Shown here piece by piece: positions 1,811 through 64,000 of a stretch of 64,000 nucleotides of DNA. The translations under genes and the position numbers were made by a program. The first letter of the stretch is position 1. Each line of letters begins with the position of its first letter. The notes below the pieces were generated by a model. It searched no databases and had not been told where the DNA came from. It saw only the letters and a list, made by a program, of their open reading frames with translations. This DNA is from Mytilus trossulus (lineage: Eukaryota): contig NC_086381.1 of assembly GCF_036588685.1 (NCBI RefSeq), positions 34,534,001 to 34,598,000 of the forward strand, given 5' to 3'.

Positions 1811-2084
1811 GCACGGCTAATTCATAGCCCCATTGCTTTCTACCACTACAAGCATTCATAGCTACTTCGTCTCAAGTTGGAATAAATTCGCAATCATTTC
1901 ATTAAACTCAACCTGACTTTTGCTGAAACAAAATCAAAATACCTTTTAAAGGGGCACTAGCTGTCAAATTCATGTTCTCAGATTTGACTCAAATTTTCAT
2001 TTTTGATTTAGATAAACAATATAAAACATTAATCCAAATTATAAAAGTCTAACTGAATAAACAATCTACAGGACATGTGCTCAA

Positions 2085-2395
2085 TGGTTATCAAAGATAC
2101 CAGGATTATAATTTAGTACGCCAGACGTGCGTTTCGTCTACCTTAGACTCATCAGTGGCGCTCATATCAAAATATTTATAAAGCCAAACAAGTACAAAGT
2201 TGAAAAGCATTGAGGATCCAAAATTTCAAAACGTTGTGCCAAATACAGCTAAGGTAATCTATGCCTGGGATAAGAAAATACTTAGTTTTTCAAAAAATTC
2301 AAATTTTTGTAACCAGGAAATTTATAAAAAAAAATGACCACATTATTGATATTTATGTCAACACCGAAGTGTTGATTACTGGGCTGGTGATACCT
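2085..2395 (-). mobile_element. Hammerhead-containing short retroelement (retrozyme / Penelope pseudo-LTR-like), copy 1
   Basis: Homologous, in reverse orientation, to 62468-62787. Contains the hammerhead at 2119-2160. It interrupts a TTAA-AGGGGCACTAGCT MITE that begins at 1950. Confidence 0.75.
2119..2160 (-). ncRNA. Type I hammerhead ribozyme, intact core
   Basis: Minus strand reads CGCCA-CUGAUGA-GUCU(aaggu)AGAC-GAA-AC(gcac)GU-C-UGGCG. This gives a 5-bp stem I, 4-bp stem II, 2-bp stem III, canonical CUGAUGA and GAAA boxes, and a GUC cleavage triplet (cut between 2124 and 2123). Confidence 0.85.
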
Positions 2396-8015: not shown

Positions 8016-8821
8016 GTAATCGATTAAGGATATCTCTTTAATGAAGTAGTTGATGTATGTTAAGAACTACTGAAAGCTGTGTGGTCTGTTATGTTTCTAT
8101 TGCTTATTGAAAACATTTCATATTTTCACTTTGTTCGTAAGACTGTGTTGAAGATCTGTACATTGTAAGAATGCTAATTACACAAAATATCATACTCCCT
8201 GACATCTGAGCTAAAAGTTTTCGTCGACTTCAAAGAAGAGTCTTACCAAGATTTAGAGGACCCCTAATTGTTTATCCCCCACTTTCAATATGAGTAAGAT
8301 CATCTATTTAATTGAACCTTCATGTTGTATCCATGTCGCATTATTGCTGTGTATTATTTTGTTCATCAATGAATCTTTTTGTCAGCTTACAAGACTAGTA
8401 TCTACGTTTGCGAATTTATTCAGCAGATAAAAAGAACATTTTTTAAATATGTTATTATGATGCAAATATGTGTAACATTTAATGTCATGTTTTAGATAAT
8501 GATTTATCTGAAGACCTGCTGAACCTGTTATGTCGATCACGAAAACACTCAACTCAAATTGAAGGTTTGTAAAATTTTGTTGGATTTTATTTTGTATGTA
8601 GATATAAGAAGATATTTTACATAAAATTAAGAATGGAAATGTATACATGTATATCATTTCTTTTGATTTTCAAAGCATTCAAGTTTTATATTTCATTACA
8701 CCGAATAAAAAATATTCAAAGCAGACTTTTTCTAAAAATGATTTTTACTAGTTTAAGGACCTTTTTTTATTTACTATGATTTAAATAAGTGCAATTCATT
8801 TTTGTTTTAATTTACTCTTAG

Positions 8822-9216
8822 GATTTACAAGGAAAACCCTTCCTGCATTTACTGCATCGCTGACAGCAACAAAAGCACTTGGAGCAAGAGAATTTATAAA
8901 GTTTGACAAAGTCTGGCTGAACACGGGGGATATTTATAGTCCATCAACAGGCGTGTTCACAGTACCAATGGATGGTCTATATTTGGTGTCAAGTTCTTTG
9001 ATGTCTGTTAAAGGAAAACATCTACACTGTCACATGTGGAGGAACGGTCAGTCCAATGTCGGAGCGTTTGGTACAGGGTGGTCTCAAGGGACTCTAAATG
9101 CTGTTATGGACTTGAAGAAAGGTGACACACTGTCAATACGTCACCACAATTCCAGTGGTGAGGATGTTTAAGGTGGACACTGGTCAATGTTCTTGGCGTA
9201 CCTCATATCTGAATGA
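8822..9216 (+). pseudogene. C1q-domain-containing (C1qDC) gene, terminal exon with premature stop
   Basis: A polypyrimidine tract and AG lie at 8820-8821. Translation: GFTRKTLPAFTASL...IKFDKVWLNTGDIYSPSTGVFTVPMDGLYLVS...LKKGDTLSIR...EDV*GGHWSMFLAYLISE*. This contains the gC1q motifs AFTA, FDKVxxN, YxxxTGxFTxPxxGLY and LxxGD. In-frame TAA at 9169-9171; the natural TGA is at 9214-9216. Confidence 0.92.
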
Positions 9217-9822: not shown

Positions 9823-10593
9823 TGTTCCAGGCCATATGAGTATTTGGACCGTACGCGTACGGCCCGGACCGTATGCGTATACTCGTACGGTCCGACCATA
9901 CGCGTACGGTCGGACCGCATGAGTATACGCGTATGGTCCAGTACGAACTGACCATACATGTTATTTGATCATATGGGTTAAACTAAAACAAGCGTTTATT
10001 AAAATCTTTTTTTATTAGTTTTACAAATTGTTATTGATAATTTATTACAATTAGATAGATAAAATGAACAAACGAACAATTGAAATTAATTATTTGTTTA
10101 ATTGTATATCTGAATCCTATTTTGGTACTCTCGTCCAAGGTGAAACAATTCAAGTAACGTAATATTTTTCACATTTCCATGTATACTGTTATGCATGTTC
10201 CTTTGCATTTGCATGTTTTGGTAAAGTTGCTAAATATGCTAAAACAAATGTCCCCCACATTATGTTTACTTCAGATATCTTCAATTTCAGTTATCATAGT
10301 TCAATTAATGTACTACTGATCGACAAGAGATTACCAGATTTAATTAGCGTGACGTTTAAACAAAAGTTAAAATATAAAGTTTTTGTTTCTATTGCAATTG
10401 AACTTTTTTATATTAATTTGATAGTTAAGTTATGTTGATCTAACTATATGCATTTGTATCTAATAAACCTTTACCAACTTTTTAATATTAGTCAGACCGT
10501 ACGCGTACGGTCCGACCGTATGAGTATTTTGAAAAGTACGCATACGGTCCAGACCGTACGCGTACGGTCCAAATACTCATACGGTCTGGAACA
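9823..10593. mobile_element. 771-bp TIR element inserted in a (TA)n tract, with subterminal palindromes
   Basis: ~40-bp TIRs: TGTTCCAGGCCATATGAGTATTTGGACCGTACGCGTACGG / CCGTACGCGTACGGTCCAAATACTCATACGGTCTGGAACA. TATATA flanks both sides. The empty site is visible in the paralog at ~3140-3165. Confidence 0.9.
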
Positions 10594-27969: not shown

Positions 27970-30633
27970 CTAATGTATAAGATTTATTATAAGTTTTATT
28001 TCAGCTGCAAAATTTTCTTTTTTGGATGATAATGATTTGTCCATAGATTCAATTAAACTTCCCAGTTCCCGTTTTGCATATGCTATCAATTGGCTGGAAG
28101 TAAAACTTTTAGACTGATATTTGATTATATTCCTACATTTCCAAATAATCCATTTAACTGTATTCATAATCGTATTAGTTATGACATTGTACTTTTTTTT
28201 GTAATCGTACATTCCTAGCATGATAAGTTCTTCGCTCAATGGAATATATACTGTGTTATTTAGTACATTATATGTTTTAAGCGCATCAAAAATGTGTTCC
28301 CAAACAACCATTATAATGTTACAGTTGTGAAAAAGGTGTGTGAGAGTTTCGTTTTCTGTTTTACAAAAATGGCATTTGCCATTATTTGATTTGCCCATTC
28401 TAAATAGTTTTTGCTCCGTATAGATAATGTTATGAACAATTTTCCAGCTAATTTGATTTGCTTTCCTAGAGGACATACTTTTATTTAAATTTATCCAGAT
28501 CTTTTTCCACGGTAATTCCGAATTATACTGAATATTCCATTTTATTTGACAGTTTGGAACTATATCTAAATTTAACGAATATTGGATTAATTTCAAAGAT
28601 ATCTCACTTGGGATTACTACTTTATTCTGTTTATCGTAAAATTCAAATGTATTTTTAATATAATAACCATTTTTGGGGGGTTCTGGATCAACGTGGACGT
28701 TTTTTAGTCTGTCCTTGAACAATTTAGGAATAGCTAATTTCAGCCTTGCCCATTCCGAGATCCAGTTTCTCTTATCTTTAAGAGTATTGTATATAAAGTT
28801 GTCGCTTTTGATGTTTTTCGTTTCTTCATCCCAAATATCTTTTATTGTATGAATTCCACTTTTTCCGAAGTTAGGGAAAAAAATAGGTTTTTTATTGTAT
28901 TGAATTTTTATGTTTCCAAAAAGTTGTTGGTTTAGGATATCGTTTTTATTTATTGGACTTTGTATACTTAAAAATTTTGACCACGTTTTAATTAAATCAA
29001 GATAGTATTTTGGAAAATTTTCCATTTGCAATCCTCGTAAGTCCGAACACTTTGCTAAAAAATTATTACAATTATATTTGATATCAAACTTCTGTAGCCA
29101 CCATTTGGCTATTGTGTTCCAGTTATCGGTTTTTGATCTTAAAATCTTTTGCATACTTTTGATTTGTTTGGATTTAATGAACGAGTCTATATTGATCATA
29201 CCAATCCCCCCTTCTTCTAACGGTAAGCAACACACGTCCCTTTTAATTAAATTTACTTTCCCCTCCCATATAAAATTCCACATGACATTGTTTATTTCTT
29301 TTTTATATTTTTCAGGTATACCTCGCATTTCGATTTCGAACCCTATTTTAGAAATGATCAATGATTTTAATATTAAGACTCTGCCCTTCAATGTTAGGTC
29401 ACGAGATTTCCAAACCTCAAGACACGCCTTAATCTTCTTTATTTTTTCTAACCATATAGCTTCTATATCAACACTATATCCATGCATGACTCCCAATGCT
29501 TTAATTGGTTCGCTAGACCACCTAATTTTTTTATATTTTGGTGTTTTATTTTTCCAACGACCCAAATATACCCCTACAGTCTTTTCATAATTTATCTTAG
29601 CACCCGATGCTTTCTCGTATATTTCTAAAACCTTGAATGTTTCCTCTATTGATTCCTCTGTTCTATTAAAAAATTGTGTATCGTCTGCAAACATGTTAAT
29701 CTTAACCTCTTTCTTTTCATTTTCTATGTCAGGGTGGGGTAAATTTATTCCTTGAATTTTCGGATTAGCCCTAATTGTGGCTGCCATCGGCTCTGCTTGT
29801 AAAATGTAAAGCATCGGCGATATTGGACAGCCCTGACGGATTGATCTAGAAATTGGGACGTATCTTGATTGAAAACCGTTAGTCATTAAACAAGTTTTAG
29901 CATTTTTTAGTAACATTTTAACCCATTCCCGAAAATTTTCCCCAAATTGAAATTTTTCTAAACATGCATCTAACCATTCCCATTCTGCATAGTCAAAAGC
30001 TTTTGTTTGATCAAGAAAAAGGATTGATCCTTCCTCGTCTTCCATATCTATAAAATCGAAAATATCTTGCAGCATTCTATTAGAATCAAAAATATTTCTG
30101 CCCTTAACAAACCCTTTTTGATCTGTTTCTATAATTGATGGTAGAACTATTTTCAAACGTTCAGCCAGAATTTTTGAGCAAATTTTATAGTCTACATTTA
30201 ATAATGTTATAGGTCGCCAGTTTTTAATATCCTCCCTCTCCCCACTTTTATATAATAGGCTTATCATTCCAAGTCTCTGCGATTCGGAAAGTGTTTTATC
30301 AAAAAAGGTTTCTTTTAATATTTGCGTAAGCTCATCCTGTATCAAAAACCAATATTCCTGATAAAATTCTGCAGTTATGCCATCTTCCCCTGGTGATTTA
30401 TCCCTTTTCATTAATTTAATTGCTTTGAAAATTTCATCTTTTGTAATTTCACTATCACATAACCGTTTTTCTGCTTCAGATAGAGTTTTACTTACATTAT
30501 ATAGTAATTTTCCCCCAGCCTCTCTATTACAACCCCCCGAGGTAAAAAGTTTCTCATAATATTTTAATTGCTCGCCTAAGATTTCATTAATATTATTTTT
30601 GTATGTGCCATTTTCGGTTTTATTTTTGACCAT
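27970..30633 (-). CDS. LINE ORF2, reverse transcriptase and C-terminal zinc-binding part (after the frameshift)
   Basis: Motifs KSPGEDG, WRPITLLNVDYK, QKGF, DQTKAFD, RQGCPISP, FADD and INYEKT, plus C-terminal CHFC...ETLTHLFHNC. Confidence 0.97.
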   Translation of the reverse strand: MVKNKTENGTYKNNINEILGEQLKYYEKLFTSGGCNREAGGKLLYNVSKTLSEAEKRLCDSEITKDEIFKAIKLMKRDKSPGEDGITAEFYQEYWFLIQDELTQILKETFFDKTLSESQRLGMISLLYKSGEREDIKNWRPITLLNVDYKICSKILAERLKIVLPSIIETDQKGFVKGRNIFDSNRMLQDIFDFIDMEDEEGSILFLDQTKAFDYAEWEWLDACLEKFQFGENFREWVKMLLKNAKTCLMTNGFQSRYVPISRSIRQGCPISPMLYILQAEPMAATIRANPKIQGINLPHPDIENEKKEVKINMFADDTQFFNRTEESIEETFKVLEIYEKASGAKINYEKTVGVYLGRWKNKTPKYKKIRWSSEPIKALGVMHGYSVDIEAIWLEKIKKIKACLEVWKSRDLTLKGRVLILKSLIISKIGFEIEMRGIPEKYKKEINNVMWNFIWEGKVNLIKRDVCCLPLEEGGIGMINIDSFIKSKQIKSMQKILRSKTDNWNTIAKWWLQKFDIKYNCNNFLAKCSDLRGLQMENFPKYYLDLIKTWSKFLSIQSPINKNDILNQQLFGNIKIQYNKKPIFFPNFGKSGIHTIKDIWDEETKNIKSDNFIYNTLKDKRNWISEWARLKLAIPKLFKDRLKNVHVDPEPPKNGYYIKNTFEFYDKQNKVVIPSEISLKLIQYSLNLDIVPNCQIKWNIQYNSELPWKKIWINLNKSMSSRKANQISWKIVHNIIYTEQKLFRMGKSNNGKCHFCKTENETLTHLFHNCNIIMVVWEHIFDALKTYNVLNNTVYIPLSEELIMLGMYDYKKKYNVITNTIMNTVKWIIWKCRNIIKYQSKSFTSSQLIAYAKRELGSLIESMDKSLSSKKENFAAEIKLIINLIH

Positions 30634-31769
30634 AGTTTTTCTTTTCCTCGTTTTTGTTCTAATCTGAAAAAATAATTTGCGGATTTTTCACCTTTTTCAT
30701 ACCAATTTATTTTTGATCTTATGCGTGCTGCTTCTGCTTTTTGTTCGTAATATTTATATATATCTTTTTTTAGTTTTTCAACCTCATTCAGATTTTTTTG
30801 TGTTCCATCATTTTCTAACAGATTTTCTAATTTATCTTCCCAATTTTTAACTTCATTTTCATTTAATCTAAATTTCTTTGAAACCGTTATTGTTATGTCC
30901 TTTATTTTAGTTTTTGTTAAATCCCAGAACTCCTTTTTATCTTTAAAATTATTTATGTTAAGTTTCCAAGATTTCCAAAATGTTTCAAAAGTATTTTTGA
31001 AAAGGTCGGTTTTAATTATACTATTGTTCATTTTCCAGTAACCCGGGCCTCTTTCTGGTTCGACGATGTTCATAGTAATTGTTACGCCGTCGTGATCGCT
31101 GAAGGGAAAATAAACAATTTTTGCATTGTTTACTCTACAATCGATATTCTCACTGGTGAATATATAATCTATTCTCGAGTATGATTGACCCCTTGAAAAT
31201 GTATATTGTTTTTTGTTTGGATATCTGAGACGCCAAATGTCCGTCAATTCATTTTTTTCAATGAAATTTTTTAGTTCATAATTTCCCGCATCTTCACGTT
31301 TGGGCATATGTTTTCTATCTAATTTCCTATTTAGACAACAATTAAAATCTCCCATAACGTAATTCACAATATCATTTTCTTTATCTATTTTTAACTTATT
31401 AAAGAAATGTTTTCTTTCTATGCCATTATTAGGGGCGTAGACATTAAAAATTCTAATAGTTTCGTTCGAGTCTAATTTGAATTCAACTATTAATTTCCTT
31501 CCCTCTGCATCTTTATATTTTTCAGTAATGTTTATATCTAAATTTGGTTTCACTAAAATTGCTACCCCTTTGGAAACGGAAGTCCCGTTACACCAAAAAC
31601 TTAAACCTCCCCATTCTTTTTTCCATTCATTTTCAACAAATTTTGTGCAATGAGTTTCTTGCAAACATATAAAATCAAAATTCTTTTTTTGACACCATTG
31701 AAATAATGCATTTCGTTTTGACTTATCTCCCATACCGTTTGCGTTTAATGAAACTAAACGAATAGACAT
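30576..31769 (-). CDS. LINE ORF2, APE-type endonuclease part (before the frameshift)
   Basis: Motifs LNANG, LQETH, NVYAPN, GDFN, DIWR, SRIDY, SDH and PGYWKMN. It joins the RT frame if one A is added in the run at 30618-30621. Confidence 0.97.
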   Translation of the reverse strand: MSIRLVSLNANGMGDKSKRNALFQWCQKKNFDFICLQETHCTKFVENEWKKEWGGLSFWCNGTSVSKGVAILVKPNLDINITEKYKDAEGRKLIVEFKLDSNETIRIFNVYAPNNGIERKHFFNKLKIDKENDIVNYVMGDFNCCLNRKLDRKHMPKREDAGNYELKNFIEKNELTDIWRLRYPNKKQYTFSRGQSYSRIDYIFTSENIDCRVNNAKIVYFPFSDHDGVTITMNIVEPERGPGYWKMNNSIIKTDLFKNTFETFWKSWKLNINNFKDKKEFWDLTKTKIKDITITVSKKFRLNENEVKNWEDKLENLLENDGTQKNLNEVEKLKKDIYKYYEQKAEAARIRSKINWYEKGEKSANYFFRLEQKRGKEKLWSKIKPKMAHTKIILMKS

Positions 31770-32208
31770 ACTTTATGGGGAAAATATATATTTATATTAT
31801 TGTCTTCAAAATTCTGAATATTTAGTTTGCTATACAGTTCACCGACTTCATTTATGTTATACAACATAATAAAAGTCCAACCTATATTCAATATATTTAC
31901 AATAAATGAATTTGCATGTACACTTGCAATGCATTTTTTTTTAGAGTTATCTCCCATACCATATATTTCATATATAATTATTATCTGCCTACTTATTTCA
32001 CCAACAAATACACATATTTGTATCACTAACATAATACAGTTCAAAAATTTTCCAAAATATTTACAATAAATGCAAGATTTTGCATACACAATAATAGCAT
32101 GTATTTTTTGTAAGTTTTTCATTATATGATAAAAATTTATAATAATATATTATATACATTTTACACAAAGTTCTCCATAAGCTCGTTTAAGGAATATGCC
32201 GGGATAAT

Positions 32209-33384
32209 TTACTTAGAAACAGTTTCTTCCAAAGAAGAGTTTTGTCTTTTGGATTGCTGTTTCTCGCCTGATCCTGGTGTTGAAGCTGAACTTCGAGTTC
32301 TCTTTTTACCACATGGTGTTTGGTATTCGCCTAATCTGTCTATACTCATAAAGTTCTTGACAAGAGAAACCAGCTGTTTTGCTCCTTCTGGATTGATATG
32401 TACCCCGGATGGGTCATTTTTATCAAACAATGTTTTAATGGGGTTGACACCCATGCCTGGTCGACAAAAATCATCCCAAAGATCGATAAAAGATAGCCTT
32501 TGGTCTTTTGAACATACCTTTTCCATATACAAATTAACAGAATGAGATGTTAAATTACATTTTGTTAAAGTTTGACCTTTGCCCTTTCTTGGCAGTATAC
32601 TGAATATGCATATATCCGCATTTGGAAACTCTGCTTTAACTTTATTTATAGCATTTGTCATATTAACACAAATCATTTCTTTATCTGTCATGTTTCTTGT
32701 GACGTCGTTTGTACCCAAACAAAAGATGACCTTCGACACATAATTTTTATCAACACTTTTGTCCAGTGTGACTAAAAGTTTGTCAATGTCTTCTGCTGTA
32801 CTACCAGAAACAGATGCATTGTGTATTCTGTTGTCAGATATCTTGAGACGGCAACAGTTTGATGCACCTAAAATGATTGTAATAGGGGGTAATGGTAAAC
32901 AGTTGTCTTCGTTTTCAGGAACAGATTGTTCATAATTCGAGTGTTTGGTGGTATCGTTGTCAATGTAGACATTCAATTCCTCGATCTGATCTTGTTCCGT
33001 AGTTTCTCGTCCCTCCCTAATTTCATGAACATAGTCCCCGTATTCATTATCTTCGGTTATTTTCTCATTTTGCTCGTCTTTTCTAACGGTTTGTTTATTT
33101 CGATTGCAATTTCGTTTGATATGACCTTCTTGACCGCATTCGAAACATACGTTATCTGTGTGCGGACAGTCTCGAATAATATGGTCGTGGCTACTGCAAC
33201 GAAAACAGTATCGCTGTCTTTCTTGTCTTTGTGGTTTCATATCACAACGGTATGAAGGGTGGTCCGTTCGACTACAGTATCGACATTGGGTTCTATTGTT
33301 GTCAGCGAAAAGTCGGATTTCAAATCTTCCGAGTTTGGTGATATTGGGGATGGTTGGGACACAATTTATCAGCTGAATATACCG
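32209..33384 (-). CDS. LINE ORF1 (5'-truncated): three CCHC zinc knuckles plus an SGNH/GDSL hydrolase-like domain
   Basis: The frame is open upstream of the ATG at 33240 to the truncation point: RYIQLINCVPTIPNITKLGRFEIRLFADNNRTQ-CRYCSRTDHPSYRC...CFRCSSHDHIIRDC...CFECGQEGHIKRNC. It continues with ILGASN, VSG, LGTNDV, SILPR, FIDLW and DPSGVHINPEG. Confidence 0.9.
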   Translation of the reverse strand, partial: RYIQLINCVPTIPNITKLGRFEIRLFADNNRTQCRYCSRTDHPSYRCDMKPQRQERQRYCFRCSSHDHIIRDCPHTDNVCFECGQEGHIKRNCNRNKQTVRKDEQNEKITEDNEYGDYVHEIREGRETTEQDQIEELNVYIDNDTTKHSNYEQSVPENEDNCLPLPPITIILGASNCCRLKISDNRIHNASVSGSTAEDIDKLLVTLDKSVDKNYVSKVIFCLGTNDVTRNMTDKEMICVNMTNAINKVKAEFPNADICIFSILPRKGKGQTLTKCNLTSHSVNLYMEKVCSKDQRLSFIDLWDDFCRPGMGVNPIKTLFDKNDPSGVHINPEGAKQLVSLVKNFMSIDRLGEYQTPCGKKRTRSSASTPGSGEKQQSKRQNSSLEETVSK

Positions 33385-33759
33385 CGTTTGAAAACATTAC
33401 CGTTTTCTTTGACTTTGCTGACACGTAGACCAGAATTGTTAATCCTATACATGAGCCATCTAATTGAATTCGGGTTTTGCAAAAGTTGTTGCTTTATATA
33501 TGAATTTAATTTCACACAAATGAATTCATGAATTCTTCTTATCATGAATTTATCGTAAATAATCAGATTGGAAAGTCATTTGATAAAAACTGCATGCCTC
33601 TATGATATTTAATAAGAACAATATTAGCTATGTGTGGGACTAATCACTGAAGGCATTCATTAGAGAACAGATCGAAGACTGAGATTTCGTATCACAAAAA
33701 GGATTATCTGTTTAAAATGAAGTTTGTTAAGTTTTTACAAATTGTTAATTTAGAAATAC

Positions 33760-61900: not shown

Positions 61901-62467
61901 AAGGGTGTTGGCTATGTTTGAAAAGGAATGGCGAATTTCAAACGGAGAAAAAGAGATAAATGTAAACAAAAGTATCAAAATGTCTTTTTGAAAGCATCAT
62001 ACAATATATTGCACGGAGGGAACCAAACCAGAATCTATTTCAAGCAATCAGTAAAAAAAACGTTTTAGTGCTACATTTTCTAAAGCACCTCTCGCAAGTT
62101 TGCCGAGTTGCAGATTTTGAGACTGCATATAATGAAAATAATAATAATTTCTTTGTGTTTTTTCCCCAATCCGATTTATGAAGAAATAAATTCCTATCAT
62201 AGGAATTAGCCATTTGCAAGTTTCTTATTCTAACTTCATGGGTTTTAAAGTTGATTTGCAATCTAAATGATATGTGTCGATCGGGCTGTCGGAATGTAAG
62301 TCTCAAAGTGGTGAGGCATTTATTAAAACAACTATGTATTTGCCTTAAATTCGGCCTTCATCTGAGAGTTTATAATTCTTGCACACCTATTATTTTGTTA
62401 TGACTTTTTATTTGTCATAAGTTGATATTCAGAATGGAATGGCAAGCGTTTCAAATATACTTTTATA

Positions 62468-62787
62468 GGTCGATGCCACTGCTGGTGGACGTTTCGTCCC
62501 CGAAGGTATCAGCAGCCCAGTAGTCAACATTTCGGTGTTGACATGAATTTCAATAATGTGTTCAATTTTATAAATTTTCGAAAAACTAAGGATTTTCTTA
62601 TCCCAGTCTAAGATTACCGTAGCCGTATTTTTCAAAACCTTTTGGAATTTCTGGAGCCTCAATGCTCTTCGGCGATTTAATTGTTCGGCTTTATAAAGAT
62701 ATTTTGATATAAGCGTTACTGTTGAGTCTTATGTAGACGAAACGCGCGTCATGCGTACTAAGTATCATAATCCTGGTACTTTTGATA
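62468..62787 (+). mobile_element. Hammerhead-containing short retroelement, copy 2, inserted in TLR-like copy 3
   Basis: Flanked by ACTTTTATA (62459-62467 and 62788-62796). It is absent at the paralogous site near 25135. Confidence 0.85.
62714..62755 (+). ncRNA. Type I hammerhead ribozyme with mutated core, probably inactive
   Basis: CGUUA-CUGUUGA-GUCU(uaugu)AGAC-GAAAC(gcgc)GUC-AUGCG: an A-to-U change in CUGAUGA and a mismatched stem I. Confidence 0.7.
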
Positions 62788-64000
62788 ACTTTTATAAGAA
62801 TTGTATGTTTAGACTTATACATAATTATATTTAGTAACGTTTTTGATTTTTTTGATAATTTTTTTTTATAATTTGCGGCAAGATGTTATAAGAACCACTC
62901 ATGATCATTATTGTGATATAAAACAGTGATTTTATCACGTTTTATGAAAAATTGTGTTGCCGTATTTCCCTAGTGTCTTGTATTGAAAATTGGTCCAAGA
63001 GAAAACTTACGCTATTGACTTGTAAATACTGAAATACTGTAAACGAATAATCTTTTGTAGGTTTTTAAGAATATATATAAATTCGAATGGTAAACTCGTT
63101 TGCGTTACAGATATTACAAAATAAAATTTTGAATGTAATATCCCTTTTTATGGAATTCACGCTAACCGGAATCTTACATTCGTTCGACGTGTTAATACTT
63201 GCTATACAATTAAATATGACCACTTTTGTGATATAATCGCGACATGTATATATTAGGTCAGATTTATTTCAAAAGGACTGCCATTTTATATTTGCTTCGA
63301 TTTTTTTGGTAAAAGAAATTTTATTTTTTGCACATTATTATTTTGAACATTGTGTTTTTCAGAAATTTACTCGGAAAAACATGGTCGATTCAAGAATGAA
63401 AGAAGACATAATTCTGTATCTCGGTAGATAAAAACGAATTTATGACACGTCACCTAGGCTGTACTCCAGCATAACATAGCACTTTAAACATCTTAATGTC
63501 AGCATAGATACGGTCTTCATACACAAATACGTTTCCATGAATTATGTCAATATGTCAATCAACTCTAGCAAAGGTGTGAAGAAAATTTAACAAGCACGTT
63601 AAAATACTTCCGTCAACGTCAAATTCCCGAAAGATGATAAAAAAGTGTTGTTACCCATTATAAATTGAGCAATTAACAACGGAAACATAATAACAAAACT
63701 GACATTGGAAATACCATATACACATGGAACATTCAATTGTGTTTTCGTCATTTTAAAATGTTCTATTTGATCAATATAACAATTACTTTTCTGCATGTTC
63801 ATTAGTACAAGTTAATAGAAATATGTTTGGTGGCTCAGCATTTTTATTAATAAAAGATTAAAATTACGATACATTGTTACATTGTTATTCATATATAGCC
63901 ATGTTCTCTCTAGATAGCTGTTCCAATTACTCATGAGTGAGGATTACTTGATCTCTGGGGGAAATAACTGACCTAATATAATTGGCATGCCCCAGACGAA

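Follow-up and report, generated by a model that had tools for sequence, protein, structure and literature searches.

A predicted RNA rod shared by mussel retrozymes and a Naiad element, and its hammerhead-like image on the opposite strand

Two retrozyme copies and their families

The window analysed here is a 64,000-nt stretch of Mytilus trossulus DNA (contig C9, 34534001-34598000), and the genome searched comprised 1.30 Gb in 541 contigs. One repeat occurs twice in the window, and in both copies Rfam recognises a type I hammerhead. Copy 2 (62468–62790, plus strand) is a near-full unit matching dispersed and tandem copies at 78–85%; its 5′ end lies inside an outer helix that is present in full copies, and its 3′ end is the usual family terminus. 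Copy 1 (2083–2395, minus strand), which aligns with copy 2, is truncated at its 5′ end inside the conserved rod described below (match to our model R1 at 2354–2401). Both belong to what we call family A. The hammerhead of copy 1 (2118–2161, minus strand) has an intact core and scores 32.3 bits against RF00163 (E 0.0004). That of copy 2 (62713–62756, plus strand) is damaged, scoring 21.1 bits (E 2) where the gathering score is 34; its core reads CUGUUGA, with U at position 6 in the conventional hammerhead numbering, and its stem I is mismatched. The cut site of copy 2 would come after 62750, leaving a 40-nt tail (62751–62790) up to the 3′ insertion end, which the ends of other family-A copies suggest to be the start of reverse transcription. 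Neither retrozyme copy is overlain by a reading frame of at least 120 residues.

Elsewhere in the genome the repeat forms long arrays of 354–355-nt units, and an exact 21-mer from its conserved motif gives 8,605 matches (none for the reversed control). It is a non-LTR retrozyme of ∼350 nt, and by size, ribozyme type and abundance it fits the mussel non-LTR retrozymes of PMC7229834, which in the available text of that paper are likewise tandem units of ∼350 nt with one type I hammerhead and thousands of copies. The same text describes two families with similar ribozymes and proposes Penelope-like elements (PLEs) as the mobiliser; it names no second conserved domain, insertion end or specific partner. 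Homogeneous family-A arrays of 354–355-nt units, long ones, lie near a contig start (C1:113000-332000). Outside this genome, family A was found in one metagenome contig and in no viral contig. A loose pattern gave 120 viral matches, and none of the 80 fetched was convincing.

Pattern searches uncovered three sister families, B, C and D, the first of which had been hinted at by loose ends in RNA reads. Exact genome matches number 1,195 for the apical hairpin of B, 2,486 for C and 125 for D (a 20-mer of hairpin H2). The hammerheads and bodies of the sister families differ, and C and D are two families beyond those in the accessible part of PMC7229834, with different hammerheads. When one unit per family is compared, identity is 78–93% over the first 60 columns and 58–78% over the rest of the unit. 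Arrays of family C reach 15 or more units. In the C and D hammerheads (L190, L320-L323) stems II and III are unlike those of A and B, and that of D apparently has a very short stem II.

The minus-strand motif and the fold of the hammerhead strand

A first-pass annotation had described the minus strand of 62481–62542 as a second hammerhead-like fold, antisense to the canonical ribozyme, and had proposed from it an ambisense, viroid-like architecture. Rfam and the sequence confirm that the motif is antisense to the type I hammerhead at 62713–62756, and its letters read as described, except that the proposed CC(UUCG)GG-GGAC needs five G where the sequence has four. The separation from the hammerhead, given as about 200 nt, is 171 nt in the linear copy 2; round the unit, the motif begins 48 nt past the cut site. 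The GCUGGUG strand attributed to copy 1 is present, but copy 1 ends ahead of the GAAAC half, and it can therefore support only one strand of the proposed helix. Rfam did not report a hammerhead over the motif with E thresholds as loose as 5–10, and its best match there had E 1.9.

The catalytic boxes were counted in 86 distinct family-A copies selected independently of the variant letters; loci L031-L090 and L215-L231 were excluded because they had been selected on letters inside the motif. The annotation had itself remarked that a full CUGANGA box is missing, and indeed the box is present on the minus strand of only 1/86 family-A copies, 0/52 B copies and 0/15 C copies, with 9/12 in D. Most family-A copies read CUGGUGA (58/86), the window copy reads CUGCUGA, and A6 is missing in 85 of the 86. 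The other half of the core, GAAAC-GUH (the GAAA box plus a UH cut site), is confined to family A (59/86, as against 0/52 in B), and no B, C or D copy (52, 15 and 12, respectively) has CGAAAC on the minus strand. The nine D copies with a box, which read CUGAUGA, lack GAAA, and hence none of the four families combines both boxes. The G10.1–C11.1 pair closing stem II was found in one of the 86 family-A copies, minus-strand stem I is mismatched past a single pair, and a genome-wide pattern found no family-A copy of the motif with A6 and G10.1 together, all six matches with G10.1 having G6. A second genome-wide pattern, CUGAUGA plus GAAACGUC, gave 210 matches. In the 30 loci inspected, the match came from an isolated single change or from a variant of the true hammerhead; a hidden CUGAUGA subfamily was rejected, there being no linked compensation in these loci and the change being no commoner than other C-to-T changes (2/86).

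The proposed helices fare no better when pairs are considered. Across the genomic copies, stems I, II and III of the supposed minus-strand hammerhead show two-sided changes at 0/12 pairs, and whole families break the stems; the proposed stem I, for instance, has a G-A mismatch in 26/52 family-B copies. A pseudoknot built on that stem was rejected, since it is broken in the same proportion of family-B copies (26/52) and in the Naiad element discussed below. For the antisense strand of an intact copy, the proposed three-way fold has an energy of −26.0 kcal/mol against a minimum of −37.9 (11.9 above), and a geometry of the catalytic type reaches −16.9 kcal/mol, 21 above the minimum. Readings as HDV-like, twister or pistol ribozymes, on either strand, were set aside by inspection against the layouts of these classes.

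A different picture emerges for the hammerhead strand. For one typical copy of each of the four families, the minimum-energy fold is the same on this strand, a bulged rod followed by hairpin H2, and lies 2.7–7.2 kcal/mol below that of the opposite strand, whose fold varies. In copy 2 the rod (helices P1, Pa, Pb and Pc) occupies 62468–62521 on the plus strand, with the 5′ strand of P1 mostly lost; model R1 matches 62462–62545 (plus strand, 82.9 bits), the window copy being among the rows on which R1 was trained. The rod is capped by the apical hairpin Pc (62487–62499, plus strand; 5 bp, UUU loop) and followed by H2 (62523–62542, plus strand; UUCG loop), in which 3/8 pairs have changed on both sides. 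The five pairs of the apical hairpin are kept with different letters across the families: the loop is closed by G-C in A, by A-U in B and by U-A in both C and D, with C-G or G-U as the second pair.

Pairing was scored in the window copy and in five copies from each family that had been selected as typical. In these 21 real copies 97.5% of 650 cells are paired, as against 37–47% in slid controls, and the consensus energy is −37.85 on the hammerhead strand against −19.9 on the opposite strand (in a second alignment, with a shifted gap). Both sides have changed at 5/31 pairs of the rod and H2 across the four families, a count matched in 122/500 shuffles; this control is inflated by the relatedness of the families, and four related families plus one Naiad family amount to few independent events. 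The choice of strand is also indicated by G-U pairs, fixed at the level of families or subfamilies at six positions, each of which is a mismatch on the minus strand. The U-G pair closing the H2 loop in the window copy is likewise a minus-strand mismatch, and the C(UUCG)G loop sits on the hammerhead strand. One outer pair gives the contrary sign, since its U-G wobble exists only on the minus strand. Elsewhere the departures divide about evenly between G-U (105) and A-C (85; p 0.17), which is what decay following insertion would produce. Fold z-scores are −4.2 (sense) and −3.7 (antisense) for intact copies, and weak, −2.4 and −1.9, for the damaged window copy.

Thus, the conserved element is predicted to fold on the hammerhead strand as a bulged rod plus a hairpin: a structured RNA, as the annotation had suggested as one option, although on the strand opposite to the one proposed. 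By the tests made here on the sequences, the minus-strand feature (62481–62542) appears to be the reverse-complement image of the rod and H2 rather than a ribozyme. Its resemblance to a hammerhead arises because the UUU loop of family A is closed by G-C and its mirror reads GAAAC; the reverse complement of Pc is precisely the GAC-GAAAC-GUC that had been read as core and cut site. A UUU hairpin closed by G-C can, then, mimic a hammerhead on the opposite strand, and the negative result removes an apparent ambisense, viroid-like animal retroelement. Ambisense viroid-like circular RNAs, as presented in the available text of PMC7761336, are also small circles with hammerheads, and two cores on opposite strands would be partly complementary. 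The present element differs in having, by its sequence, no working core on the second strand and no conservation of such a core between families, and in being encoded in the genome with retrotransposon ends.

In two RNA-read runs of one study, first mates over the motif are more frequent on the minus than on the plus strand (4–5 times in X6, about 8 times in X7), which corresponds to RNA of the hammerhead strand if the usual library chemistry is assumed. In the remaining six runs the direction is balanced, mixed or ambiguous, and single-end runs, which look oligo-dT primed, were left out for strand. Sharp read ends occur at the antisense GUC in 0/8 runs and likewise at the true hammerhead cut site in 0/8, which means that the read-end test has no power on cleavage. 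The available text on the Poseidon element PAc (PMC11167929) similarly reports no RNA-seq ends at its ribozyme site. Reads run round the unit junction, as they would on circular RNA and equally on tandem transcripts.

The rod in a Naiad element and the position of copy ends

A protein search found many frames of 1056 residues in 4.28-kb tandems. The frame has an N-terminal GIY-YIG domain (PF01541 at 183–273, E 5.7e-7), a weak RVT_1 match (824–907, E 0.033) and a DKA motif. In the accessible text of Craig et al. 2021 (PMC8557442), the DKA motif is diagnostic of Naiads, which share the N-terminal GIY-YIG domain, form tandem units of 3.4–4.4 kb, are abundant in bivalves and have no canonical hammerhead. 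By its GIY-YIG domain, DKA motif and tandem units, the element can be assigned to the Naiad PLEs. A second, more distant Naiad-like RT family was seen at L325:4856-6295 (minus strand).

A homologue of the rod lies on the coding strand in 9/10 fetched Naiad loci, the tenth being truncated. Its alignment with family A scores 54.5; the best of 300 shuffles reached 41.1. The outer helix retains 7/7 pairs through three two-sided changes, and the second helix 6/6. The Naiad version carries an extra hairpin at a bulge and no H2, and its minus strand has neither hammerhead box. A model built without Naiad gives the Naiad copy a modest 23.5 bits, where an unrelated GC-rich viral locus scores 19.7. In L386 the homologue stops 10 nt short of the first ATG. 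The 3′ ends of two truncated Naiad copies gave no link to the rod, a result that full-length copies reversed. In 8/8 terminal copies (five rows from related families being left out of the count) the Naiad ends at or within 2 nt of a T-run 6 nt ahead of the rod. Since the loci all come from a single family plus a close subfamily, their weight is about that of one observation; with one Naiad family compared, Naiad may not be the sole carrier of the rod among Penelope-like families. At L392:6268-6514 a family-A retrozyme lies directly past the 3′ end of a full-length Naiad, as a chimeric insertion or by chance.

The retrozyme ends behave in the same way. Measured from the cut site, 55/76 family-A ends fall at +31 to +49 (mode 41), with 18 tandem and 3 elsewhere, and 27/35 family-B ends fall at +42 to +52, with 7 tandem and 1 elsewhere; these counts are from contig C1 with an exact tail pattern and include two near-duplicates. 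By eye, the ends of C lie close to +33 and those of D close to +40. The rod starts 6, 7, 6 and 5 nt past the ends in A, B, C and D, respectively, and hence the spacing from end to rod is 5–7 nt while that from cut site to end ranges from 33 to 46 nt, with an uncertainty of about 2 nt since the ends lie within T-runs, and with most samples from contig C1. The constancy of the first distance and the variation of the second indicate that the ends track the rod and not the ribozyme. In the four retrozyme families and the one Naiad family, the rod thus lies 3′ of the inferred internal start site.

A candidate start signal and competing explanations

From this position, and from its sharing with Naiad, we infer a role for the rod: the predicted 58-nt structure, common to the Naiad start, probably recruits the Naiad reverse transcriptase and fixes the point at which copying begins. 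In such a scheme the Naiad protein would bind the rod within multimeric or circular retrozyme RNA and nick AT-rich DNA, and the cDNA would begin just 5′ of the foot of the rod, so that the tail and hammerhead would be copied first and the rod last. Late copying of the rod would explain why truncated copies, including both in the window, miss its 5′ part. A precedent for several of these steps is the Poseidon PLE PAc from Anolis (Frangieh et al. 2024, PMC11167929), for which the accessible text describes an internal start downstream of the hammerhead (+111-118), non-homologous AT-rich nicks and a requirement for RNA 3′ of the start site (to +172).

A broader proposal, which we advance more hesitantly and would rate a little short of evens, is that the mussel retrozymes are chimeras of a hammerhead and a start signal of ∼60 nt from a Naiad that itself lacks hammerheads. 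By itself the rod would then serve as a ruler, enough to turn any RNA into a Naiad template copied from 5–7 nt off the rod foot. Telomerase RNA offers an analogy, in that its structure sets its template.

The strongest competitor, although unlikely, is that the element is a captured 5′ piece of Naiad with another job, such as that of an internal promoter, an endonuclease site in the DNA or a signal for translation or stability, the ends adjoining it for a separate reason. Several features would suit this explanation: the element stands directly ahead of the first ATG of the Naiad frame, its primary sequence is conserved as well as its pairing, one 11-nt stretch resembles the consensus of the RNA polymerase III B box, and the Penelope endonuclease reportedly requires tail DNA, according to work cited in the available text of PMC11167929. 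However, the G-U pairs favour a single strand, as expected of RNA, the retrozymes probably encode no protein, and the fixed spacing of 5–7 nt would require a second explanation.

Less probable again is descent from a hammerhead in inverted orientation, whether a former minus-strand ribozyme or an inverted pseudo-LTR, which lost its function and was then co-opted as the sense rod. The annotation had named a dead hammerhead relic as the outcome should its fold fail, and a mere relic is unlikely because no other part of the unit is as well conserved between families as the motif. A relic origin nevertheless draws some support from a weak likeness between the family-A antisense strand and the element's own hammerhead core, 17/26 positions being equal with the same spacing, a level reached in 7/3,000 shuffles for a window chosen post hoc (local score p 0.03, 400 shuffles), and from the CUGAUGA restored on the minus strand of 9/12 family-D copies. 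It is opposed by the lack of any family with both boxes or any match with both A6 and G10.1, and by the Naiad version, which has neither box; Naiads are moreover reported without canonical hammerheads in the accessible text of PMC8557442. An ancestor carrying the two boxes together costs about four changes on the unrooted tree (A,B),(C,D), as against two for separate gains.

The same complementarity could instead have been gained by family A, with the 3′ half of the rod pairing with the ribozyme and silencing it in the circle. We consider this marginally more doubtful than the inverted origin. The predicted duplex of core and rod 3′ half has −20.9 kcal/mol in A and about −9 in B, and the mussel circle is a published exception whose predicted fold leaves the ribozyme not free (available text of PMC7229834). 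Yet the rod alone reaches −28.5 kcal/mol, families B, C and D have spread without the complementarity, and a ribozyme-blocking helix was not favoured in circular folds, the expected number of rod–core pairs being 0.00 in three family-A circles.

That the minus strand is an active atypical hammerhead, dimeric or minimal, in an ambisense element like a viroid is very improbable. In its favour, GAAAC-GUC, whose 15.2-16.2 pair is palindromic, is compatible with the minimal Penelope-type ribozymes in the accessible text of PMC4209133, natural variants at A6 retain some activity in that of PMC7151607 and PMC3088659 (CUGCUGA, the window reading, is in the former a natural variant active in Mn2+), and some reads run in the minus direction. 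Against it stand the loss of A6, the missing G10.1–C11.1 pair, the mismatched stem I, the energetic cost of the catalytic geometry, the lack of GAAAC in every B, C and D copy and the want of a single covarying pair among twelve.

The chimera proposal, with the rod as ruler, would if true identify the mobiliser of an animal retrozyme and supply the first defined start signal for Naiads. The available texts of PMC7229834, PMC11167929 and a 2026 preprint (Li, Clavereau and Pollet, bioRxiv 10.64898/2026.07.22.740005) leave open both the identity of the enzyme that copies the circles of animal retrozymes into genomes and the way in which Penelope-like reverse transcriptases pick an internal start. 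A shared structured element at a fixed distance from all ends turns the two questions into one direct assay. A general link between PLEs and retrozymes is already published (PMC7229834 and the preprint, in their accessible parts). The preprint reports that animal retrozymes share PLE-terminus sequence and argues that they use PLE enzymes; its available text centres on Xenopus, has no mussel and no hairpin, and mentions Naiad only in a coral survey. What sets the present case apart is that the shared sequence is limited to a short signal and that the partner has no hammerhead. In the available text of PMC8557442 there is no 5′ RNA rod, and the link to retrozymes is limited to a remark that they may exploit autonomous PLEs. 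The literature covered, mainly open-access papers, gave no account of this rod domain or, for mussel retrozymes, of a ribozyme on the minus strand.

Some further features were noted in passing. Another hammerhead-like core, distinct from these and longer in stem II, occurs in several copies (L133, L140 and L154, at C1:71053964, C2:17761835 and C2:93718777), apparently within an intron of a repeated gene-like sequence. In the window, frames of 395, 398 and 905 residues at 27970–33396 (minus strand) have, by eye, the look of an L1/Tx1-type retrotransposon (zinc-knuckle ORF1, endonuclease, RT). GC-rich palindromes of short repeats at 9871–9940 and 10491–10571 gave weak matches to microRNA families that are likely spurious, and a 128-residue frame at 8785–9171 (plus strand) resembles, again by eye, a C1q-domain exon.
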